Counted from the first letter of the stretch, positions 9,604 through 46,363 are shown. The stretch is 64,000 nucleotides of DNA from Patescibacteria group bacterium (GCA_041661725.1 JBAZTX010000003.1:218794-282793), one strand, 5' to 3'. Notes: generated from the letters alone by a model not told the origin. Made by a program: numbers and translations.

Positions 9604-10586
9604 AGTGTTGATGACGCATTCGTATATTGTTCCGCTTCTGCGGAAGCCGAATGGCCGGTAAGTGTGAGGAAAACGTCATCAAGAGTTGGACGGTGCAGTG
9701 AAAGACTCTCGACATCTATCTTGGATTCCTCCAGCATGGATAAAACTTTTTTCAGGTCAGTCGTTCCGTTTTTGGTGATGACGCTTAAGCTTCTGCGCTT
9801 TGTGTCGCCTTGCATCACGTCTGCCCCGAACAGTTTGAGGGCGTTAAGGTAGCCGCCGTTGTCTTTCATGATTATTTCCAGATGATCGGGTCCGATGCTG
9901 GTTTTAAGTTCGGTCGGCGTTCCCTGTGCGATGACAATGCCTTTATCTATGACGATAATTCTGTCGGCCAGCCTGTCGGCCTCCTCCATATATTGAGTGG
10001 TAAGCAAGATGGTCACGTTTGTTGCTGCGAGTCCCTTGATTATTTCCCACATGGTGATGCGGCTGTGTGGATCCAAGCCGGTCGTTGGCTCGTCGAGAAA
10101 CAGAATGGGCGGCGAGGCGATCAAACTCATGGCCAGATCGATTCTTCTGCGCATGCCTCCGGAATAGGTTTTTACTCGACGATTGCTCTGTTCCACCAGG
10201 TCGAGTCTTTCCAAAAGTTTTTGGCTTAGGTTTTTTGTTTCTTGTTCGCCGAGCCTGTAGAGCATACCTATCATCTCTAGGTTTTCCCTGCCGGTAAGAT
10301 ATTCATCGACAGCGGCATATTGTCCGGTTAAGCCGATGTTGGATCTGACTGCGCCAGACTCATTTCTGACGTCGAAACCGTTTACAGTCGCCGTGCCCTC
10401 ATCTTGCGAAAGCAACGTGCTGAGTATTCTGACGATTGTCGTTTTTCCGGCGCCGTTCGGTCCCAGCAGCGCCAATATTTCGCCGCGTCTCACGTTAAAA
10501 TCTATTCCATCGAGGACTTTTAATTTACCGTACGATTTTTTTAGGTCTTTTACCGCGATTGCGCGGTCCGTGGATGTATTAAGCAT
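9600..10586 (-). CDS. ABC transporter ATP-binding protein (DrrA-like)
   Basis: Walker A GPNGAGKTT, signature YSGGMRRR, Walker B ILFLDEPTTGLD, H-loop region. Confidence 0.9.
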   Translation of the reverse strand: MLNTSTDRAIAVKDLKKSYGKLKVLDGIDFNVRRGEILALLGPNGAGKTTIVRILSTLLSQDEGTATVNGFDVRNESGAVRSNIGLTGQYAAVDEYLTGRENLEMIGMLYRLGEQETKNLSQKLLERLDLVEQSNRRVKTYSGGMRRRIDLAMSLIASPPILFLDEPTTGLDPHSRITMWEIIKGLAATNVTILLTTQYMEEADRLADRIIVIDKGIVIAQGTPTELKTSIGPDHLEIIMKDNGGYLNALKLFGADVMQGDTKRRSLSVITKNGTTDLKKVLSMLEESKIDVESLSLHRPTLDDVFLTLTGHSASAEAEQYTNASSTL

Positions 10587-10775
10587 ATAGGAAAACTTAA
10601 AATACGCTGTTATCCCTGTGGGCGTTTTTTATGCAATCCATCGCAGTTCAGTAACCGTGCGGCTGCCCGGGCCGCGCGTAATTTGCGATGTTTAGTTTGA
10701 AATTTAATCACGGAGCAACCTGTAATTCAAAAGTATACTGACATTTAAAAGCCGTCAAGATATTTTTTATAAACA

Positions 10776-10804
10776 AAAATCCCCCGACATGTTGGGGGAT
10801 TTTA
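10776..10804 (-). terminator. Hairpin terminator after the VOC gene
   Basis: aaaaatcccccgacatgttgggggatttt, a GC stem with flanking A and T runs. Confidence 0.75.
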
Positions 10805-10807
10805 GCG

Positions 10808-11170
10808 TCACGGTCTGTGAAACGTTGCTTCGATGTTATTGCCCTCTGGATCGAGGACAAAGCCGCCATAATATTTCGGACCATAATCCGGACGCGGGCC
10901 GGGCGGGCCGTTGTCTTTGCCTCCGGAAGCAAGGGCGGCATCGTAGAAATCTTTTACCATCTGTTCTGATGTTGCCTTAAAACCGATGTGCGCATACTTG
11001 GCTTTTTCTTCGCCTAAGTTTAACCAAAAATCCCAGGCGTCGCCTTGCTTAAAGCCGGCATAGTCCTCGCCGTCCATCGCGAGCTCGTAGCCAAGCGGCT
11101 TGAGAGCTTTAACGTAAAAATCTTTGGCCCGCTGCATATCGCGGACAAACAATGAGACGTGATCGAGCAT
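10808..11170 (-). CDS. VOC (glyoxalase/bleomycin-resistance) family protein
   Basis: 120 aa. MLDHVSLFVRDMQRAKDFY...HIGF...FVLDPEGNNIE is the typical paired beta-alpha-beta-beta-beta pattern. Confidence 0.8.
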   Translation of the reverse strand: MLDHVSLFVRDMQRAKDFYVKALKPLGYELAMDGEDYAGFKQGDAWDFWLNLGEEKAKYAHIGFKATSEQMVKDFYDAALASGGKDNGPPGPRPDYGPKYYGGFVLDPEGNNIEATFHRP

Positions 11171-11306
11171 ATATTTGGGATTATGAATTATTTTTTTATC
11201 TTATCCGTTGTGCGGCATAAGTCAAACCGCCTGTTGATTGTTTTTGCACTTGCAATCAATAACGTACGGAGTAAGGTCAAAAGATAATTCATCTAACCGC
11301 AAACAT

Positions 11307-11648
11307 ATGAAAAAGTTTGTCGTATTATACATGGCGCCCATCGCCGAGCTGGACAAAATGATGCAAAACACAGACAAAGAAAAAATGCGTGAGATGGATG
11401 CGATTTGGTTAAAATGGATCGCTGACCACAAAGACAGTTTTGTGGATCAAGGCGCGCCGCTGGGTAAAAACAAACGCGTAACAAAAGAAGGAATTAACGA
11501 CATCAGGAACGAGGTAACGGGTTATGCCGTCGTCCAAGCCGAGTCGCACGAAGATGCCTGCAAAATTTTTGAGGATAATCCTATGTTTGAGATGCCGGGG
11601 GCGTATGTTGAGGTTCTGGCGTGGGTGGAGATGCCGACGACTAAGTAG
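11307..11648 (+). CDS. Hypothetical small protein (possible dimeric alpha/beta-barrel type)
   Basis: 113 aa from the first ATG (MKKFVVLYMAP...). The ORF-track start at 11238 is a non-ATG extension. I recognise no diagnostic motif. Confidence 0.55.
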   Translation: MKKFVVLYMAPIAELDKMMQNTDKEKMREMDAIWLKWIADHKDSFVDQGAPLGKNKRVTKEGINDIRNEVTGYAVVQAESHEDACKIFEDNPMFEMPGAYVEVLAWVEMPTTK

Positions 11649-11667
11649 TCGATTTGCTTTGGCAAAA

Positions 11668-11695
11668 TAAAAACGACGGTTTGTCCGTCGTTTTT
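11668..11695 (+). terminator. Hairpin terminator
   Basis: aaaacgacggtttgtccgtcgttttt. Confidence 0.75.
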
Positions 11696-11794
11696 ACATG
11701 GGATCACATTGTCGAGGTTGTCCGCACTGTTATAGCGAGTTTACCACTGTATTCATACATCTCTGTCTGGTCCAAGTTAATTTTTTTTAGACAT

Positions 11795-12112
11795 TTATTT
11801 CCACGTTCTTTTTTTATTGATTTCTTCTTTGTATCTGAATGATCGTTCAAGATCGATATTGTGCCGATTCGCAATTGAACACAGGAATATCAAGATATCA
11901 GCCAACTCCTCATCGATTGAACCAACGATTGAGTTTGGATCGGTACGCATTTTTTCGCTCTTTCTAATAGCTTTAAACAATTCACCGACTTCTTCTCCAA
12001 GCATTAATGACTTTTCTAGCACGGTTTGAGTTGTGAAACCTCTCTCTTTTTCTAATTCAACAACATATTGTTGAATGTTTTTTAGTGTTGGATCCTCTTT
12101 TAATTCTGGCAT
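11795..12112 (-). CDS. MazG-like all-alpha nucleotide pyrophosphohydrolase
   Basis: EEVGELFKAIRK...EELADILIFLCSIANRHNIDLERSFRYKEEINKKR is the MazG/YpjD-type metal-binding helix pair. First ATG used (MPELKED...). The region is AT-rich. Confidence 0.7.
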   Translation of the reverse strand: MPELKEDPTLKNIQQYVVELEKERGFTTQTVLEKSLMLGEEVGELFKAIRKSEKMRTDPNSIVGSIDEELADILIFLCSIANRHNIDLERSFRYKEEINKKRTWK

Positions 12113-37317: not shown

Positions 37318-37950
37318 ATGTCTGAAATTATAGAATTTTTTTCGCGCCTGCATAATTTGGAAGATTTAATACGCTGGGGAGGATACACTGTTTTGGCGGT
37401 TATTGTCTTTGCCGAGTCCGGTCTGTTGATCGGTTTTTTCTTACCCGGTGACTCTCTCCTTGTAACCGCGGGGCTTCTTGCGTCTCAGGGTTATTTGAAC
37501 ATTTGGGAGCTTTGGATATTGTTGTCCGTGATGGCGATTGCGGGTGATTCGGTCGGTTATTATTTTGGCAAAGTCACGGGACCGAAAATTTTTACGCGTG
37601 AAAAATCGATTCTTTTCAATAAAGATCATTTACTGCGCGCGCAGGCTTTTTATGAAAAACACGGCGGTAAAACAATTGTGCTTGCGCGCTTCATGCCTAT
37701 CATCCGAACTTTTGCGCCGATTATTGCAGGAGTCGGTAAAATGCCTTATCGCAAATTCGTGACATATAACGTTGTAGGCGGAATCGGTTGGGTGACATTG
37801 ACTTTGGGTCTTGGATATTTTTTGGGCAGAGTGATACCTGACGCGAGCAAATATTTGCACTGGATCATCATTGCAGTGATTTTTATTTCAATCAGCCCGG
37901 GCGTGATCGCGTGGCTGCGTGAGAGGAACAAACGTACATCACGTACATAG
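37318..37950 (+). CDS. dedA: DedA-family membrane protein
   Basis: FFLPGDSLLVTAG...YFGKVTGPKIF...ARFMPIIRTFAPIIAGVGKM. The last codons and the stop lie in the gtacat repeat. Confidence 0.85.
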   Translation: MSEIIEFFSRLHNLEDLIRWGGYTVLAVIVFAESGLLIGFFLPGDSLLVTAGLLASQGYLNIWELWILLSVMAIAGDSVGYYFGKVTGPKIFTREKSILFNKDHLLRAQAFYEKHGGKTIVLARFMPIIRTFAPIIAGVGKMPYRKFVTYNVVGGIGWVTLTLGLGYFLGRVIPDASKYLHWIIIAVIFISISPGVIAWLRERNKRTSRT

Positions 37951-38008
37951 CGTTTATAGCGTGCATAACGTTGTACGTCAGATACGCGATGTACGCTATG
38001 TACGTTTT
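37928..38008. repeat. gtacat/atgtac palindromic element (family PE-2), copy 1
   Basis: aaacgtacatcacgtacatagcgtttatagcgtgcataacg / ttgtacgtcagatacgcgatgtacgctatgtacg. The copies at 46377-46473 and 47122-47218 are clearly related. Confidence 0.8.
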
Positions 38009-38060
38009 TATGTTTTAAGCTATACTAATGTCACTTAAAGGCTATTAGCCACGTTTTAAT

Positions 38061-38630
38061 ATGGCGGAACAAAAAATTGATTTGGAACAAGAAAAAGCGC
38101 TGTTTATGCAGATAAAAAGCGACCCACAGGCCATTGGCCTGGTTTACGACCGTCATGCAGGGCAGCTGTATGGGTATTTACTCAAACGCTGCGGGCATAA
38201 AGAAACGGCCGAAGATTTGGTGGCGCAGTCGTTTATGAAGCTCCTGCAATCGGCGCCAAATTTGGAATGGCAGGGCGTGCCGATCGGCGCATGGCTTTAC
38301 CGTGTTGCATCAAACGCATTGGCCGATCATTGGCGCAGCAGCGCTGTGCGCAAACAAACTTCGCTGGATGACGAAGATGATAATTGGGATCCGCCATCGC
38401 TTGATGATCCGGCTTGGTCCGCGGAGATGTCGCTTGAAGGCGACAGGTTGCGCGCGGCCATCGATCAACTTTCACGCCGCGATCAGGAAGTTCTGACTTT
38501 AAAATTTTATGGAGAATACTCCACGGAAGAAATTGCATCGCAGTTGGGCATCTCCAATAATCACGCGGCAGTTTTGATTTATAGATCGCTGGGCCGGATG
38601 CGCAAGATTCTAACTCAAACTACAAAATAG
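38061..38630 (+). CDS. ECF-type RNA polymerase sigma factor
   Basis: Region 2 (AEDLVAQSFMKLL...GAWLYRVASNALADHWR) and region 4 (LSRRDQEVLTLKFYGEYSTEEIASQLGISNNHAAVLIYRSLGRMRK). Confidence 0.85.
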   Translation: MAEQKIDLEQEKALFMQIKSDPQAIGLVYDRHAGQLYGYLLKRCGHKETAEDLVAQSFMKLLQSAPNLEWQGVPIGAWLYRVASNALADHWRSSAVRKQTSLDDEDDNWDPPSLDDPAWSAEMSLEGDRLRAAIDQLSRRDQEVLTLKFYGEYSTEEIASQLGISNNHAAVLIYRSLGRMRKILTQTTK

Positions 38631-38631
38631 T

Positions 38632-41600
38632 ATGTCATTTAACGAAGAACAAATCGCGCAACGCATAGACGAGGCGCTCGAAGGCAATGAAAGCAAGGCG
38701 ATGCCAGAGGACAGGCCTTATTTGCGCATGGCAAAAGCTCTTAAGCAACATGCCGCATGGAAACAGGACAAAATGGATCCGAAAGTTATGGCTGCACAAA
38801 AAGAGCATCTGCTTGAGGCGGCGAAAAACCTTGAATCCCGAATCCCGAATCCCGAAATCCGAGATTCAGCGCAGCGGACATTCAGCGAAGCGGACATTCG
38901 ACATTCGACCCAAGTTCGTCGGCCCTGGTTCCTCTGGGTCGGCGGAGCGGTTGCTGTTGCGGCCGTCGTGCTGCTCGTCTTTGCTGCACAGACGGGGACT
39001 ATTCCTTTTAAACAATTATTCAAAACTCAATCGCAGAGCGGTTTGTCAAAACTTTCGTTGGTTATTCCCGCCGCCAACGCAGGTGATGCATTCAGTATGC
39101 TGGTTGAAAAACAAAATGACGGCACAGCGGAGCTTGATACTTCTTTTCAAATAAATTCTAAGGTTGATATTGATCAAGATAAGCTTAAGCAGAGTTTGCG
39201 CGTGGTTAAAGTTTCGGATCAGGGCGATGAAAGCGTGCCTTTTGATTTTAACAAAACGGGCGACAATCAATTTAACGTTAAGCCTCAAAATGAGTTGGAA
39301 ACGGGCAGTGTTTACCGCGTAGTGATTGCAACTGCAGTGCAGGGCGAAACGGGAGATTTGCGCCAGCGCGATTTTTCGTGGGCAGTGCAAACAAAGGATG
39401 TTTTTAAAATCATTCGCGCCGTACCCGGCGATGCGTCCACCGGCGTACCTCTTGATACGGCAATTGAGCTTACTCTTTCGCAGGTCGGTTGGCAGGATCC
39501 GGCGCAGTATTTTGCCGTCGAACCGCAGGTCGATGGTCGATTCGAAACGCACGGCCGCACGTTGGTCTTTTTGCCGAATAAGCCTTTGTCGCCTTTGACT
39601 CTGTATACCGTGACTTTTAAAAAAGGTTGGGGTTTAGGCGACGGCGGATCAACTTTGAACGATGATTATTCTATACGTTTTCAAACCAGCTCCGGCAAAG
39701 TCAGCTCTGCGCAAAAATACATCAATGTCACATCGTACTTGTTTGAATCTGCGCCCGGTACGGAGCCGGTTATCGGCGTTTGGTACAGCGATGTAGATAA
39801 GCCGGTTACGGTTACAGGTTATTCATTATCATTTGATGATGCCAAATCAGTCATTCAAAAAATCGAAAGCCAGCCTTCGTGGATTGATGCAACTGACATT
39901 CGAAATAAAACATTGGCAGACAAAGTCGGCGGTCAGGCGTTTACGCAACAGGCGAATTTGGAAAATGTGGGTGAATATAGCAAAGGAATAAGATTGTCGA
40001 ATTCCATTTCGGCAGGTTTTTACGCCATTCGTTTGGATCAAGAAGGTGTGCAGCCCACTTGGGTTTTGTTGCAAGTTACAAATCTGGCGGCATATTCGAT
40101 GGCCGACAAGGATCAGATTTTGGTTTGGACCGTTAACACGGAAACCGGCAAACCGGTCGAGACAACCGTATCCATGGATGGACAAGCTGTCAAAACAGAT
40201 TCGCAGGGTACAGCTCGCCTTAAAACTCCGGAATCGTGGTCAGCTAGTGATACGAATATCACGAGGAACGCACCGGCGGTCGTCTTAGAACTGGGCGAGG
40301 GTTCCATGCGATTGCTCAGCGTTTTGCGTAAAGATTGGGAATTCATGTATTTTGGTTCTTCTTACGGAGGTAACGGCGCATCTTTCGACACGTGGTCCTA
40401 TCTTTATAGCGACAGGCCGCTGTATCGCTCGCAAGATAAAATTAATGTCTTTGGTTTGCTGCAGGATAGAAATTCCAATCGCGGCACGGGAACTGCGGAG
40501 GTGAGGTTGATGAATCGCAGTTTCATTGATTACGGAACTTACGACAGCAAGGTTTATGCCAAAGCGGATCTTAACGAAGACAATGCGGGATTCTTTAGCG
40601 GTCAGATTTCGTGGAGCGGTACGCTTACGCCCGGATACTATGAATTGGTTTTGTTTAAAGACGGCCAACGCGTGACTTCGCGTTCAATCGAAATCAGAGA
40701 CACGGTGAAACCGGCTTATTACTTGCAGGTCGTGCCTGAGCGTGTGAACGTTTTTACGGGCGAACAAGCAAAAGGCCAGTTGATTGCAAAATTTTTTGAT
40801 GGTACGCCGGTTGCAAAGGCAAAGATATTATTGAATGCTTCCGGCGGATTCGATTCCACCAATCAACCGTTGACAGTCACGACGGATGATGCCGGTTATG
40901 CAAGTTATTCTTTTAACCTCGGTACGCCCAAGTGCGATTTGGGGGAACGCTATCAAAATTGCTACGCGCAAACCAATTTGAGCATAGAGGCCAGACCGGC
41001 TGTCGGTGAAGAAGGAGAGATCTACGCTTACGCAAGTTATAACGTTTGGCGCAGCCATTCTTCGCTTAATGAAGATTCGATTAAAGAAGATAACGGAAAC
41101 GCAACTTTGCGTTATAGAGTGCGCAAGGTTGATCCGAGTAAGGCCAACGGCCGCACGGACGATTCTGTTTTAACAGATGGCCAAGCCAGCGTAAGCGTAA
41201 AAGCGAAATTTATCGAGCAGCATTGGGATAAGACTCAGACGGGAACGTACTTTGATTCTCTGGAAAAGAAAGTAGTACCGCAATACAGGTATGTGCAGCG
41301 CGATGTAGAAGCCGGGAATTTTGATGCAGTGACGGATACTAACGGTTATGCGACTTTCAACTATCAGCTTAAAGACAATATTTCTTATCGCGTTGTTGTA
41401 TGGACCGATAATGGCGGCGCAACGCAGTCTGTAACGTCTTACGTATCAAAAGGTTGGTATGACCGTTCGGGCAACGATGCTCCGAGTTTGGTATCGACGG
41501 ACGCAGCTGATAATCGTAACTCATTTAATTTGGGAGATAAAGTTTCGTTAAGCTTTACTCAATCCGGACAAAAAATGAGCGGTGAAAATGAAAGTTTTAT

Positions 41601-43932
41601 GTTTGTGCACGCCGCGCGCGGAATTCGCAGCTTGCAAGTTTCATCCAACGCTACGCATGAGTTTGATTTTACCGAAGAGGATGTGCCCAACATGACGGTT
41701 TACGGAGTCGTATTTTCCAAAAACGGTTTTGCCATGTCGCAATACAGCGTTATGTTTGATTCGCAAAGCCGCGAATTAAACGTAGTTATCGAACCGGATA
41801 AAACAAGCTATGCTCCGGGTGAAAATATAAATTTCCGCGCAAAAGTAACGGACAAAAACAGCAATGTAATAAAAGATGCGCATATCGCGGTTTCGGTTGT
41901 TGATGAAGCCCTGCTTTCGATAGCCCAGCTTGGAGCTGACGAGATGCCGTTGAACACGCTTTATCAATTATTGCCGGACGGCATAGTCGCAACCGGTGCA
42001 ACTCACTTGGCTGATCAGGCTAGCGGTTTTGCGGGCGGCGGCGCGGAGATGGGCGGCGGTGAGCGCAGCAATGCAGTGCGCAAAAACTTTAAAGACCAAG
42101 CGTCTTTCATGTCGCTCTTAACCAACGGCGACGGAGTTGCGACCGGTTCGTTCACTTTGCCGGACAACATTACATCGTGGCGCTTTACCGCAGTTGCGAT
42201 GACGCAGGATTTGCGCGCCGGTGCGGCCAAATTGAATGTCAGCGCAAGCAAGCCATTGTTTGTGGAAGCTGTTATTCCGCAAAATATTCTATCTGCCGAT
42301 AAGCCGGTATTAAAATTACGCGCTTTTGGAACGGCCTTGCCAAAGACCGGCGAGGTGGCGTACACGGTTGACGCGCCGACTTTGGGAATTAACAAGCAAG
42401 AGGTCAAAGGCCAGGTAAATCAAGCTGTTTATCTTGCATTGGACAATCCGATTGTCGGTTCGCACAAGGCGACGATCGGCATATCGGTAAACGGTCAGGC
42501 TAAAGATGCGATTGAGCACACGATAAACGTGGCTGCATCCGGCGCCACGCATGATGAGCGCGTTTCCATCGAGCTTGCACCCGGAACGGAGCTCTCTGAC
42601 ATTGGTGAGGCCACGGAAGTTCAACTTGCTTTTGAATCCAAAACGCGTTCCGCCGCCAGATCTGAATTGGATGCTTTGGCAAATCCGTGGTCTGCAAGAT
42701 TGGAATCCGCCGTTGCCGGCCGCGTATCAAGAGAGTTGTTGCGCGATTATTATCAATCCAACGAATTGGATCCGAATGATATAAGTTTGACGAGTTATCA
42801 ACTGCTAAGCGGAGGTTTGGGGGTCTTGCCTTATTCGTCCGAAGACGTGACCTTGAGTTCCAAAGTCGCCGCAGTCGCACCGCAGGGAGTCGACCAAGCT
42901 GCGCTTGCCAATTATTTTTGGAGCGTGACGGATAATGCAAAAGCTTCGCGTGAAGAATCGATTCAAGCTTTGGCCGGTTTGGCTGCACTTGGTCAGCCGG
43001 TGATTTCCCGCTTGCATCAGGTTGCGGAACTTACGGATCTTTCGTGGCGCGAAACGCTGGCCTTGGCTCGCGGTTTGGATGAGATCGGTGAACGCGAAGC
43101 AGCGCGAACACTGTTGGACGGATTAATTTCAAAGTCAGAAGAACATGATGGTTCGATGACATTAAACGTCAGCAAATCCCAAGGCGAAACAATTGAAGCG
43201 ACTGCGGAAGCGGCGGCTTTAGCTGCGTCCATGGCGCATCCTTCGGCGGATAAGTTGATGGCTTACGTGGAATCAAACTGGAACAACGAAGCTTTAACGG
43301 ATTTGGATCGCGTCATGTATTTGCAAAAAGTCGTGCCGACAATGGTTTCGGGTAATGTTAAAATAAGTTACGCTATCGGTCAGGATCAAAAAACAATCGA
43401 GCTGAGCGACAATGAACCGGTGCATTATGAGACATTGACTGCAGATGAGGTTAGAGCTTTCCGTGCAGTCAGCGTGGACGGCCCGGCGTCCGTGTCTTAC
43501 GTCAAACGCGTAAACGGAAATCTCAGCGCATCATCCGATTTACTGAAAGTTGGTCGTGATTATAAAATAGATGGCGCGGCGGCGCAGACGTTCCACGAAG
43601 GGGATTTGGTTACGGTAAGTTTGAACGCGACATGGGATCAAAAGGCTCAAGATGGTTGTTATGTGCTGCGTGATCGTCTGCCGGCGGGATTCATGCCCGT
43701 GGTCAATATCAATTACGATCGTTACGGCAACATGCCTTTGTACTTTCCATTCAACGTGCAAAACAACGAAGTGTCCTTTGTTGTTTGCGAACATGATAAG
43801 CCCGCAGCAATCAATTATTTGGCGCGCGTCGTTTCCCTAGGCACTTACAATGCGGCAGGTGCTTTGTTGCAATCCATGCAAACTCCGTCGCTCGCGACGG
43901 TTTCCACGCCGGCGGTTGTAGAGGTGAAATAG
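38632..43932 (+). CDS. Membrane-anchored alpha-2-macroglobulin-family giant protein with a cytoplasmic N-terminal (anti-sigma-like) segment; no thioester motif
   Basis: 1766 aa, starting 1 nt after the sigma gene stop. About 95 aa are cytoplasmic, followed by one TM (WFLWVGGAVAVAAVVLLVFAA), Ig-like repeats and the A2M signature FTLPDNITSWRFTAVAMT...ASKPLFVEAVIP. The expected CxEQ position reads PWSARLES. Confidence 0.8.
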   Translation: MSFNEEQIAQRIDEALEGNESKAMPEDRPYLRMAKALKQHAAWKQDKMDPKVMAAQKEHLLEAAKNLESRIPNPEIRDSAQRTFSEADIRHSTQVRRPWFLWVGGAVAVAAVVLLVFAAQTGTIPFKQLFKTQSQSGLSKLSLVIPAANAGDAFSMLVEKQNDGTAELDTSFQINSKVDIDQDKLKQSLRVVKVSDQGDESVPFDFNKTGDNQFNVKPQNELETGSVYRVVIATAVQGETGDLRQRDFSWAVQTKDVFKIIRAVPGDASTGVPLDTAIELTLSQVGWQDPAQYFAVEPQVDGRFETHGRTLVFLPNKPLSPLTLYTVTFKKGWGLGDGGSTLNDDYSIRFQTSSGKVSSAQKYINVTSYLFESAPGTEPVIGVWYSDVDKPVTVTGYSLSFDDAKSVIQKIESQPSWIDATDIRNKTLADKVGGQAFTQQANLENVGEYSKGIRLSNSISAGFYAIRLDQEGVQPTWVLLQVTNLAAYSMADKDQILVWTVNTETGKPVETTVSMDGQAVKTDSQGTARLKTPESWSASDTNITRNAPAVVLELGEGSMRLLSVLRKDWEFMYFGSSYGGNGASFDTWSYLYSDRPLYRSQDKINVFGLLQDRNSNRGTGTAEVRLMNRSFIDYGTYDSKVYAKADLNEDNAGFFSGQISWSGTLTPGYYELVLFKDGQRVTSRSIEIRDTVKPAYYLQVVPERVNVFTGEQAKGQLIAKFFDGTPVAKAKILLNASGGFDSTNQPLTVTTDDAGYASYSFNLGTPKCDLGERYQNCYAQTNLSIEARPAVGEEGEIYAYASYNVWRSHSSLNEDSIKEDNGNATLRYRVRKVDPSKANGRTDDSVLTDGQASVSVKAKFIEQHWDKTQTGTYFDSLEKKVVPQYRYVQRDVEAGNFDAVTDTNGYATFNYQLKDNISYRVVVWTDNGGATQSVTSYVSKGWYDRSGNDAPSLVSTDAADNRNSFNLGDKVSLSFTQSGQKMSGENESFMFVHAARGIRSLQVSSNATHEFDFTEEDVPNMTVYGVVFSKNGFAMSQYSVMFDSQSRELNVVIEPDKTSYAPGENINFRAKVTDKNSNVIKDAHIAVSVVDEALLSIAQLGADEMPLNTLYQLLPDGIVATGATHLADQASGFAGGGAEMGGGERSNAVRKNFKDQASFMSLLTNGDGVATGSFTLPDNITSWRFTAVAMTQDLRAGAAKLNVSASKPLFVEAVIPQNILSADKPVLKLRAFGTALPKTGEVAYTVDAPTLGINKQEVKGQVNQAVYLALDNPIVGSHKATIGISVNGQAKDAIEHTINVAASGATHDERVSIELAPGTELSDIGEATEVQLAFESKTRSAARSELDALANPWSARLESAVAGRVSRELLRDYYQSNELDPNDISLTSYQLLSGGLGVLPYSSEDVTLSSKVAAVAPQGVDQAALANYFWSVTDNAKASREESIQALAGLAALGQPVISRLHQVAELTDLSWRETLALARGLDEIGEREAARTLLDGLISKSEEHDGSMTLNVSKSQGETIEATAEAAALAASMAHPSADKLMAYVESNWNNEALTDLDRVMYLQKVVPTMVSGNVKISYAIGQDQKTIELSDNEPVHYETLTADEVRAFRAVSVDGPASVSYVKRVNGNLSASSDLLKVGRDYKIDGAAAQTFHEGDLVTVSLNATWDQKAQDGCYVLRDRLPAGFMPVVNINYDRYGNMPLYFPFNVQNNEVSFVVCEHDKPAAINYLARVVSLGTYNAAGALLQSMQTPSLATVSTPAVVEVK
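38831..38910. repeat. cgaatcccgaa / gcggacattc stutter block in frame in the cytoplasmic segment of the A2M-like gene
   Basis: ttgaatcccgaatcccgaatcccgaaatccgagattcagcgcagcggacattcagcgaagcggacattcgacattcgacc encodes LESRIPNPEIRDSAQRTFSEADIRHST. Confidence 0.8.
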
Positions 43933-43998: not shown

Positions 43999-44940
43999 AT
44001 GAACAAGAAAAACTTGTTTGGTGTTTTTATAGCATTGACTCTCGCCTGTGTTTTTTCCGGTTGCGGTAAAAGTCAAAATCATGTCGAACCCGTCAAGAGT
44101 ATCAAGCAAGAAGTGACATCAACTGCGTTGACGATGGAGCGTCCGACTTCTTCCATTCCGATAAGCACGGTGTTTATTGATCCTCAAGCTTTTAACGCCA
44201 CTAACGCATTAAAACCATTTGCGTTAAAGGGATCGCCGATTGCCGGCGTCGTCAATCATCATGTTCTGGCTGCGGACATCTTGGCGCAATTTTTTAAAAC
44301 CATAAAAACCACGCGTCCGGATTTTGAAACTTTTATTATTATCTCGCCTGATCACTTTAGCCGCGGCAGAGGAGTGTCGACTCATGGATTGACGTATGTG
44401 ACGCCGGCTGGCGATGCGGTTGTACGTAAACGCTGGGTTTTTGAATTGGGAAAGATCGGGGTTTGGGACGGAACGGATAAGCGTGCATTTGAAAATGAAC
44501 ATGGCGTTGGCGCTCTTGTGCCTTTTATTGAACGCGAATACCCGCAAGCTAAGATTTTGCCTCTTTTTTTGCGTGCCGACGTAAAACTTGATCAAGCCAA
44601 ACAGATAGGTGAGGCGCTTGCTAAACTTTCTGACGAAAAGACGTTTGTCGTCGTATCATCAGATATGAGCCACGGCTTAAAAGAGTTCGACGCAGCTCAA
44701 CGCGATGTCGAGACTCTGCAATGGTTGCGTAACGGCAATTGGGATCGTCTGACTTCCGCGACCGACAAAAATACCGACAGTGCTGTCGGTTTTGCTGTCC
44801 TGCACGCTTACTTGCAAAAAAAACTCCCCCTTGGCAAAGGGGGGCAGGGGGGATTTCTTTTGCTCTCTCACAAACAGAGCACTGACTACGTCGCTGATCC
44901 GACCAACGTCACGACTTACATCTCGGGAGTTTGGGAGTGA
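43999..44940 (+). CDS. MEMO1-family (AmmeMemoRadiSam system protein B-like) lipoprotein
   Basis: Lipobox LACVFSGCG plus AGVVNHHVLAADI, IIISPDHF, ENEHGVGALVPFI and VVSSDMSH. An in-frame hairpin (cccccttggcaaaggggg, 44826-44843) encodes KKLPLGKGGQGG. Confidence 0.75.
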   Translation: MNKKNLFGVFIALTLACVFSGCGKSQNHVEPVKSIKQEVTSTALTMERPTSSIPISTVFIDPQAFNATNALKPFALKGSPIAGVVNHHVLAADILAQFFKTIKTTRPDFETFIIISPDHFSRGRGVSTHGLTYVTPAGDAVVRKRWVFELGKIGVWDGTDKRAFENEHGVGALVPFIEREYPQAKILPLFLRADVKLDQAKQIGEALAKLSDEKTFVVVSSDMSHGLKEFDAAQRDVETLQWLRNGNWDRLTSATDKNTDSAVGFAVLHAYLQKKLPLGKGGQGGFLLLSHKQSTDYVADPTNVTTYISGVWE

Positions 44941-45372: not shown

Positions 45373-46363
45373 ATTGCAAGTTGGTTAAATAATTAACAAA
45401 CGGTTTGCTGAAATCCTTTTTGTTACGTATGCATTTTTGAATAACCGTGAGCAAAGGAGTTTTGACGTTTAATTTTTTTGCGAGTTTCAATCCCGTATCA
45501 GTGGCTGCAATACCTTCGACCGTTCTAATACCAAGTTTGTGCGGTTCGCTGCGGCGCGCATGCATCAGTTTTTCGCCGTACAAGCGATTGCGTCCGTGCG
45601 AAGAAAATCCCGTCACCAGCAAATCGCCTAGTCCCGCAAGCGACGTCGCTGTATTTGTGTCAGCTCCGGCTTTGGAAAGCAGCTCGGACATCTCGCGGAT
45701 TGCGATTGTAACGATTATTGATTTTGTATTGGTCGGATATTTTAGTCCGTCGCAAAAACCCATGGCAATGGCATAAGCGTTTTTAAGCGCTCCGGCCAAA
45801 CTGACGCCCAATAAATCATCTGAAAGTTCTGTTTTAACGTTTCTGCCTTTGATTATTTCGGAAACTGTTTGACGCGCTTTTGCATTTTGACCTGCAATGA
45901 CAAAAGCCATCGTCGCGTCTTTGACTATTTCGTTGGCAATAGCCGGTCCGCCCAGCATACAAACGCGTTCGCTAAGTTGTCTTGACAGCACTTTTTGCAA
46001 ATATACGGCCATCGGATCAAGCGTATTTTCATTCAGCCCCTTTGAAATGGTTACAACTAAAGTATCCCTTTTAAGATATGGTTTGGCAAGCAGCATCACC
46101 ACGTCAACGGCATTTGACGGAACGGCTACGATTACGAGTTTTGCATCTTTAAGACTTGCTTCGATATCGCCGGTCGCACTGACATTCTCTGGCAACTTAA
46201 CGCCTTTCAAATATTTATTGTTGCGATGCTTTTTATTGATGCGCTTTTCGACTTTCTTCTCGATGCAATAAAGACTGACGTGATGCCCGAGATTCCCAAG
46301 ATGCCATGCGAGCGCCGTTGCCATATTTCCTGCGCCCAATATTGAAATGTGCTGTTTTGTCAT
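45314..46363 (-). CDS. gpsA: NAD(P)H-dependent glycerol-3-phosphate dehydrogenase
   Basis: ISILGAGNMATALAWHL Rossmann motif, KGLNENT, GGPAIANEI, LKNAYAIAMGFCDGL. Confidence 0.9.
   Translation of the reverse strand: MTKQHISILGAGNMATALAWHLGNLGHHVSLYCIEKKVEKRINKKHRNNKYLKGVKLPENVSATGDIEASLKDAKLVIVAVPSNAVDVVMLLAKPYLKRDTLVVTISKGLNENTLDPMAVYLQKVLSRQLSERVCMLGGPAIANEIVKDATMAFVIAGQNAKARQTVSEIIKGRNVKTELSDDLLGVSLAGALKNAYAIAMGFCDGLKYPTNTKSIIVTIAIREMSELLSKAGADTNTATSLAGLGDLLVTGFSSHGRNRLYGEKLMHARRSEPHKLGIRTVEGIAATDTGLKLAKKLNVKTPLLTVIQKCIRNKKDFSKPFVNYLTNLQYADPTRASTLRTSDVNRSR

Follow-up and report, generated by a model that had tools for sequence, protein, structure and literature searches.

The stretch of DNA analyzed here, 64,000 nucleotides from a Patescibacteria group bacterium (GCA_041661725.1 JBAZTX010000003.1:218794-282793; referred to below as the window), carries on its plus strand a gene for an extracytoplasmic function (ECF) sigma factor of 189 aa (38061..38630), followed after a single nucleotide (TAG-t-ATG) by a gene for a 1,766-aa alpha-2-macroglobulin (A2M; 38632..43932) with an N-terminal cytoplasmic head, one transmembrane (TM) helix and a large extracytoplasmic body, and then by a gene for a Memo-like lipoprotein. 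We consider it somewhat probable that the head acts as an anti-sigma domain in an autoregulated operon, in which the sigma factor, set free when the A2M ectodomain is lost or rearranged, brings about replacement of the A2M and Memo proteins. The system was classified as putative ECF sigma/anti-sigma signaling with a new sensor and a new head. A sequence-only reading of the same DNA had placed the 1,766-aa gene one nucleotide after the sigma stop codon, as the two open reading frames (ORFs) bear out, and what it observed in the sequence was confirmed in full; it described the sigma and A2M genes only, and overlooked the third gene of the operon.

The 189-aa protein has regions 2 and 4 only, as in group 4 sigma factors, with Pfam matches to Sigma70_r2 (E=1.7e-14) and Sigma70_r4_2 (E=3.5e-12) and a score of 83 bits against the NCBIfam sigma70-ECF superfamily model (cut-off, 43). 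The best specific NCBIfam model was that of the BldN family (111 bits), far under its cut-off of 206. BldN-type ECF sigma factors are paired with a single-pass anti-sigma factor, RsbN, which has a class III domain with a non-canonical helical head. Given that score, and a profile of the A2M head that matched nothing in the PDB, the likeness to BldN and RsbN is treated as a lead only.

The evidence that carries the anti-sigma reading comes from relatives of the operon. Full-length homologues of about 1,750 aa, with 34 to 62% identity and source names such as 'alpha-2-macroglobulin family' or 'Ig-like domain-containing', are present in Patescibacteria, and the same A2M type is also found in Bacillota and Chloroflexota. 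The survey covered 80 loci from species-representative genomes and 9 from contig look-ups, in which all ORFs were translated and searched iteratively with the sigma and Memo proteins of the window; removal of duplicates and contig-edge cases left 76 distinct loci. Start codons of the homologues were set by rule; in sigma-less loci, the lengths preceding the TM helix were taken from the longest ORF and are upper bounds. One locus with 93% identity (L010) is from a metagenome-assembled genome labeled 'Patescibacteria group bacterium', many other loci are labeled Candidatus Uhrbacteria, and a more distant clade is assigned to Magasanikiibacteriota or Falkowbacteria. The records for L015-L018, L021, L024, L028, L029 and other loci (TPA assemblies) are titled 'uncultured Gammaproteobacteria bacterium', a label that looks wrong because these loci share 36 to 46% identity and synteny with the Uhrbacteria loci.

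The proposal that the A2M protein controls the sigma factor would have lost its footing if the adjacency of the two genes were not conserved. Of the 76 loci, 48 have an ECF sigma gene as the immediate upstream neighbor of the A2M gene, in the same orientation. All 48 sigma-linked proteins have 74 to 116 aa before the TM helix, whereas 25 of the 28 proteins without a sigma gene have 0 to 59 residues there, as short anchors or lipoprotein signal peptides, the latter of the ordinary kind in ten Bacillota proteins. The head thus occurs with the sigma gene in 48/48 loci versus 3/28 without it (Fisher p=4e-17), and in two of the three exceptions (L008 and L029) the ORF extends too far and takes in unrelated sequence of low complexity. 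One protein that was found separately (P0040, locus L090) has a tail of only 55 aa that keeps the third-helix motif alone, and a sigma gene is still found upstream of it. The A2M gene of L090 is itself split into two ORFs (1,286 and 394 aa) between the sigma gene and the Memo gene.

Because related genomes are not independent, a neighbor-joining tree of the A2M bodies was built (a simple tree, without support values). Members without a sigma gene are nested in sigma-linked clades about six times in this tree (L002; L029/L042; L036; L071; L082; and the L061-L073 group), and each nested member or group also lacks the head. This pattern points to about six independent joint losses or gains of the sigma gene and the head. 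Stop-to-start gaps between the sigma and A2M genes are mostly -4, -8 or +1 to +4, so that the two genes are predicted to be nearly always translationally coupled, and the A2M gene consistently encodes an N-in single-pass protein with a short helical head and Lys or Arg before the TM helix. Distances among sigma factors and among heads remained correlated after removal of the A2M-body signal (partial Mantel r=0.33, p about 5e-4), a result that was given little weight because the partial Mantel test is known to be liberal.

The promoter region follows the same distribution. The sequence-only reading had proposed a search for ECF-type promoter motifs upstream of 38061, and one was found at 38029-38055 that is conserved in sigma-linked loci. 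The motif in the window is TGTCAC-N17-CGTT, and that of the family is TGT(C/A)A(T/C)-N17/18-CGTT, ending 5 to 11 nt before the sigma ATG. In Bacillus subtilis, the sigma-X promoter reads TGTAAC-N17-CGAC and the sigma-W promoter reads TGAAAC-N16-CGTA, and it is the likeness to these promoters that marks the motif as typical of the ECF type. A strict regular expression for the motif was matched in at least 32 of the 48 distinct sigma-linked loci, compared with a mean of 1.3 and a maximum of 6 in shuffled sequences; the count is a lower bound, several further copies having been cut off at the ends of the extracted segments. In sigma-less loci, the motif was essentially missing from the DNA that precedes the A2M gene (2/39). 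When the window is aligned with L010, similarity sets in sharply some 48 nt ahead of the sigma ATG and from there on is nearly perfect, with unrelated DNA farther upstream; the TGTCA and CGTT elements are kept perfectly despite the diverged flanks. A sigma-70-like -10 box, TATACT, directly upstream of the ECF-type motif is identical in L010 and kept in most sigma-linked loci, and in many relatives it is preceded by TTGnnn-N17. The motif is thus a putative autoregulatory ECF-type promoter tied to the sigma gene. No Shine-Dalgarno sequence was present at 38052-38063 of the window or in the orthologous loci, and the position of the promoter leaves no space for a leader; with CGTT 5 to 11 nt from the ATG, a leaderless or near-leaderless sigma mRNA is predicted.

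The sequence-only reading gave the A2M protein about 95 cytoplasmic residues and one TM helix, close to the computed values of about 96 residues and a helix at about residues 97-121, the only hydrophobic segment in the 1,766 aa. AlphaFold2 (AF2) predicted three helices in the head (residues 3-16, 25-42 and 50-69) with pLDDT values of about 80-92. The helices packed poorly when modeled alone (pTM, 0.41), as one would expect if the domain folds upon binding to a partner. The heads of 38 relatives align as three segments, A..LD.AL, P(F/Y)L.(M/T)A.AL...A and (M/L)D..V...Q(K/R)..L..MA, followed by a variable linker and the TM helix. In the window the linker is encoded by short tandem repeats (38833-38909: GAATCCC x3.4, a 16-mer x2.2 and GACATTC x2.4), and a change in copy number of a 7-bp unit would cause a frameshift just before the TM helix, leaving a soluble head only. 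The TM helix is rich in Gly and Ala, with a conserved W.GG...VAAV pattern that may recall the substrates of site-2 proteases, as a resemblance only. Past the helix, a motif of the form A-x-A-(G/A/Q)-D-x-F (ANAGDAF in the window, with D152 invariant in the family) occurs at a distance of about 20-35 residues in patescibacterial forms with or without a sigma gene, and was absent from the Bacillota and Chloroflexota forms examined. This motif may serve as a site of the signal-peptidase type or, alternatively, belong to the ectodomain as its first strand.

The sequence-only reading also reported an A2M hallmark in the body of the protein, and Pfam, profile and Foldseek searches all agree with it. 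The Pfam models MG2, A2M_BRD, A2M and bMG10 were matched above their cut-offs in canonical order, which places the protein in the A2M superfamily, and a profile of the family matched E. coli ECAM/YfhM (E=9e-20), Salmonella A2M, insect TEP1, human A2M, CD109 and C5. Within the body, FTLPDNITSWRF (residues 1174-1185) and KPLFVEAVIP (1207-1216) are found where that reading had put them. The AF2 model of residues 1150-1766 (mean pLDDT, 86) is made up of beta domains followed by a helical toroid (1337-1570) and a further beta domain at the C terminus, and Foldseek matched it to ECAM from MG7 to the C terminus (E=8e-27). The CUB/TED (alpha-alpha toroid) insertion and the C-terminal MG domain are therefore recognizable by AF2 and Foldseek; the Pfam TED model did not match the 1,766-aa protein. 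Between the bait-region domain and MG7 lies a loop, GGGAEMGGG, that aligns with the ECAM segment RFGGDGDELKRGG and is nearly invariant across the family, unlike the hypervariable baits of broad-spectrum A2Ms. The A2M body is intact, with all of its domains, a loop at the bait position and a TED-like toroid.

The thioester site had been read as PWSARLES (1352-1359) instead of CxEQ. There is no CxEQ in the 1,766-aa protein, which has four Cys in total, and in hhalign alignments against thioester-bearing relatives (YPYGCTEQ) R1356-L-E-S1359 falls on C-x-E-Q; R1356 is invariant in the family. The sequence-only reading took covalent trapping to be unlikely on this ground; as a correction to it, thioester-less (type II) bacterial A2Ms are known and can trap a protease non-covalently all the same (PMC5764988).

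The third gene encodes a Memo-like protein (PF01875, AmmeMemoRadiSam-B-like) with a lipoprotein signal peptide ending ...ACVFSG/C and the putative metal-site motifs NHH, DH, EHG and SSDxSH. A Memo gene lies directly 3' of the A2M gene in 65 of the 76 loci (43/48 with a sigma gene and 22/28 without, the latter including the Bacillota lipoprotein forms), often overlapping it by 1 or 4 nt. No Memo gene was detected beside A2M in the Chloroflexota loci of the survey. Across the 76 loci Memo is therefore conserved with this A2M type more widely than the sigma gene is, and because it also accompanies A2M in the sigma-less and Bacillota loci, the conserved core is the extracytoplasmic A2M plus Memo. 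Judged from gene content, the sigma gene, the head and the promoter are an add-on module, carried by part of the patescibacterial lineages and by one or more lineages of Peptococcia. A literature search found no description of an A2M-Memo pairing and no link of anti-sigma factors or Memo to macroglobulins, and there is no mention of A2M or Patescibacteria in the paper that re-classified the ECF sigma factors.

What the sequences show is the gene structure, membership of the A2M superfamily, the missing thioester, the conserved linkage of sigma gene, head and promoter, and the conserved Memo partner. We infer that the head binds the sigma factor and that proteolysis releases it, and likewise what the signal is and how large the regulon would be, in proposing the following sequence of events. 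The sigma-A2M-Memo operon would be read from the housekeeping-type -10 box and the overlapping ECF-type promoter. Residues 1 to about 70 would form a family-specific three-helix anti-sigma domain that holds the co-translated sigma factor at the membrane, while the thioester-less A2M body outside the cell, with the Memo-like lipoprotein, would act as the sensor. Cleavage or consumption of the body, for which a protease acting on the conserved bait-position loop or close to it is the most probable cause, would lead to loss or rearrangement of the ectodomain. The membrane stub would then be removed by regulated intramembrane proteolysis, for which the AxA motif is perhaps site 1, as in RsiV and RsiP, and the freed sigma factor would transcribe its own operon, so that spent A2M and Memo are replaced.

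Several observations weigh against this reading. A Pfam scan of the 38 heads at E<=10 found no anti-sigma family and one stray match to NrsF, a profile of the heads had no match among PDB sequences, and Foldseek of the AF2 head model against the PDB returned nothing under E=5; no recognized anti-sigma domain (class I ZAS/RskA-type, class II or class III) was found in the head; there was also a weak NCBIfam match to the CU044_5270 family (E=0.007). In an exhaustive profile search of 1.84e9 representative proteins the head was found only at the N terminus of this A2M family or its fragments. A widespread modular anti-sigma head was rejected on this result, and the head, being restricted by these searches to one protein family, is no proven modular sigma-binding unit; if it is an anti-sigma domain, it would be of a new and family-restricted type. 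Locus L079, the one true exception to the co-occurrence, has a head like that of its sigma-linked neighbor L050 and 390 nt of non-coding DNA upstream. A regulon scan of the 64-kb window showed autoregulation only, the single other strict promoter match (45962-45987, minus strand) lying inside gpsA, at chance level. No site-2 (M50) protease was found by a crude search for HExxH plus xDG in window ORFs of at least 150 aa, from which only proteins of more than 300 aa were retained. The AxA motif is possibly structural, since it is also present in forms without a sigma gene, and the near-invariance of the bait-position loop makes promiscuous protease sensing less likely. The sequence-only claim that the position and topology of the protein are those of an anti-sigma factor nevertheless has good support from comparative genomics, in the co-occurrence, the joint losses or gains, the coupling and the promoter, although no known anti-sigma family is matched in sequence or fold; the interpretation as a whole, protease sensing included, is supported in part.

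A more specific version of the anti-sigma reading, which we put forward tentatively, is that the A2M body is a self-reporting, single-use protease trap. Extracellular cleavage would be passed through the TM helix and the new anti-sigma head, would free the sigma factor and would lead to resynthesis of trap and Memo, as a bacterial, cis-acting counterpart of the logic of activated A2M and its receptor in animals. Protease sensing is here purely something we infer. A clue to the mechanism comes from a Magasanikiibacteria-type sister clade, in which a Hint (intein-like) domain of about 130 aa sits exactly inside the bait-position motif (...GGAE(K/G)GG, then the insert CF..GT.I......YVHN, then (D/E)K.GGG; equivalent window position, 42034-42060). 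The insert was seen directly in P0035-P0037 only (by Pfam in P0035 and P0036, by alignment in all three); L009 encodes P0036, and L057, L069, L070, L074, L076 and L077 are listed by clade and protein length. Because the residue after HN (+1) is Asp or Glu, canonical splicing is impossible. Established intein chemistry leads one to expect self-cleavage, or a thioester where Gly meets Cys, in an otherwise thioester-less A2M; the trigger in this clade would then be autocatalytic or thioester-forming. An insertion of this kind inside the loop suggests that the loop is the intended breaking point of the protein.

It is less probable, and on present evidence unlikely, that the same anti-sigma wiring answers to another signal, such as touching the surface of a host or partner cell, damage to the envelope, or chemical modification of the body that depends on Memo. 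In its favor are the near-invariance of the bait-position loop, the Big_5 Ig-like domains in the N-terminal part of the body, and a conserved extracellular Memo-like partner for which no connection to protease inhibition is known. Patescibacterial surface proteins of very large size have been discussed as adhesion proteins (PMC13059738), and the hosts of this locus are probably episymbionts. However, the full A2M set, including the bait-region domain and the TED-like toroid, is kept across three phyla, and the A2M architecture is known for protease trapping even without a thioester (PMC5764988).

We regard it as improbable that the N-terminal segment does not bind the sigma factor at all and is instead a signal-anchor with another cytoplasmic role (an export or assembly cue), the sigma factor being the dedicated factor of the operon and controlled elsewhere. 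Such a role would fit a head that lacks homology to any anti-sigma class, occurs in this A2M family only, and in L079 has no sigma gene next to it. It fits poorly with the repeated, near-perfect joint gain and loss of sigma gene, head and promoter, with translational coupling as the rule, and with P0040, which keeps only the helix-3 motif and yet has a sigma gene upstream. A plain signal-anchor was rejected as unlikely because true anchors of 20-50 aa and lipobox-bearing lipoprotein forms of the same protein exist, and these anchoring-only homologues are exactly the ones without a sigma gene. A further alternative, that signal peptidase cuts the AxA site constitutively and releases the body while the sigma factor and head merely set expression by stoichiometric feedback, with no external signal, is very improbable: the AxA-x-D-x-F motif is indeed present in all patescibacterial forms, sigma-less ones included, but it lies far from the TM helix for a signal-peptidase site, the sigma factor would never be switched off, and conservation of the head would serve no purpose in an anti-sigma factor that is cut constitutively.

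The anti-sigma reading has precedents in receptor-type anti-sigma factors that are freed via signal-peptidase cleavage, as established for RsiV (PMC4183432, PMC6066255) and RsiP (PMC8844934). As in RsiV/sigma-V, the lysozyme receptor, and RsiP/sigma-P, the gene next in line after the ECF sigma gene encodes an N-in single-pass protein whose cytoplasmic head is short and helical and whose ectodomain senses a ligand, there is apparent autoregulation, and an AxA motif lies outside the membrane. The differences are an A2M ectodomain of 1,640 aa instead of a small receptor domain, a head that matches no known anti-sigma class, and a third gene for a Memo-like lipoprotein; cleavage and release are here putative steps. 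By this analogy the system would resemble RsiV and RsiP, where a receptor ectodomain controls the proteolysis of a single-pass anti-sigma factor, in its working, without membership of those families.

Two types of bacterial A2M have been published, type I with a thioester and type II without, the latter exemplified by MagD of the mag operon, which traps proteases non-covalently (PMC5764988). Like the type II proteins MagD of P. aeruginosa and YfaS of E. coli (PMC5764988, PMC3735191), the window protein has A2M domains without CxEQ, is bound to the cytoplasmic membrane and has operon-encoded partners. However, its partners are Memo and the sigma factor and not MagA/B/C/E/F, it is anchored by an N-terminal TM helix that carries a cytoplasmic domain, its hosts are monoderm-type or CPR (candidate phyla radiation) lineages, and YfaS-annotated proteins are only distantly related to it (E about 1e-11 to 1e-27). 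No homologues of the Mag/Yfa partners (YfaA, P, Q, T) were found among the neighbors in the window and the 80 related loci, so that of the two marks of type II the missing thioester is present and the mag/yfa operon is not. The best structural and sequence matches were to type I proteins, ECAM/YfhM and Salmonella A2M (PDB 5a42, 4ziq, 4u48), with which the window protein shares the domain order of MG domains, BRD, MG7, CUB/TED and MG10. Unlike type I, it has no thioester (CxEQ), no lipobox and no neighboring gene for PBP1C (pbpC), and its bait-position loop is conserved. On genomic grounds, it was classified as a putative third type among bacterial A2Ms, one whose partner is an extracellular Memo-like lipoprotein and that is present in Patescibacteria, Bacillota and Chloroflexota.

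Table 1. Features of the operon, in positions of the window.
Feature	Position	Strand	Details and basis
TATACT, sigma-70-like -10 box directly upstream of the ECF-type promoter	38021..38026	+	Read from the sequence
Putative ECF-type bipartite promoter, TGTCAC-N17-CGTT	38029..38055	+	27 bp; ends 5 nt before sigma ATG
ECF sigma factor, regions 2 and 4	38061..38630	+	189 aa; Pfam, NCBIfam
Cytoplasmic three-helix domain, residues 1-70, candidate anti-sigma domain	38632..38841	+	AF2, conservation, co-occurrence with sigma gene
Variable low-confidence linker, residues 71-96	38842..38919	+	AF2, alignment, repeats
Single TM helix, residues 97-121, PWFLWVGGAVAVAAVVLLVFAAQTG	38920..38994	+	Hydrophobicity; Arg/Lys on N-terminal side
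A-x-A-G-D-x-F motif (ANAGDAF), residues 148-154	39073..39093	+	27 residues after TM helix
Ig-like and macroglobulin domains	39406..41919	+	Pfam Big_5 259-352, MG2 590-687, A2M_BRD 961-1096
Bait-position loop GGGAEMGGG, residues 1135-1143	42034..42060	+	Family alignment, ECAM alignment
A2M (MG7) domain with FTLPDNITSWRF and KPLFVEAVIP	42118..42315	+	Pfam A2M 1163-1228
Helical thioester-domain-like region, residues 1337-1570	42640..43341	+	AF2, Foldseek, hhalign
R1356-L-E-S1359 in place of CxEQ	42697-42708	+	hhalign
C-terminal bMG10/MG8-like domain	43570..43887	+	Pfam bMG10 1647-1752
Memo-like lipoprotein, third gene of the operon	43999..44940	+	Pfam, NCBIfam, signal peptide plus lipobox

By Pfam, the neighbors of the A2M gene in the window are genes for a VTT/DedA protein, the sigma factor, Memo, a baeRF-like protein and GpsA. 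The baeRF-family/'Host_attach' gene (PF18856/PF10116; 44941-45372, minus strand) is convergent to the operon and is followed by gpsA, and the same baeRF-like/gpsA synteny is seen in L001, L002, L004 and L006. Between the end of the VTT/DedA gene and the sigma promoter is a degenerate run with a 9-bp period (37925-38010; ACGTACATC / ACGTACATA / GCGTTTATA ...), of which TRF scores only 37983-38004; L010 has another short-period repeat in its place. In L061, a member without the upstream sigma gene and the head, a different ECF sigma gene follows Memo and is itself followed 4 nt later by a gene for a 243-aa multi-TM protein (10547-11855). That sigma gene was rejected as the operon's own, since it forms a separate sigma/anti-sigma-like pair with the multi-TM protein.

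If the anti-sigma reading is true, A2M-fold proteins would join the transmembrane sensors of bacteria, and a new anti-sigma head would be added to the three known structural classes. The A2Ms of Patescibacteria, Bacillota and Chloroflexota are not known to have been studied so far. The parts of the system are small (a sigma factor, a 96-aa head and a 27-bp promoter) and suited to work in E. coli or B. subtilis. For the Patescibacteria, which are uncultured and have few regulators, this would be one of few predicted circuits leading from a signal to a gene, and it would be a previously undescribed way for a cell to report events at its surface armor.

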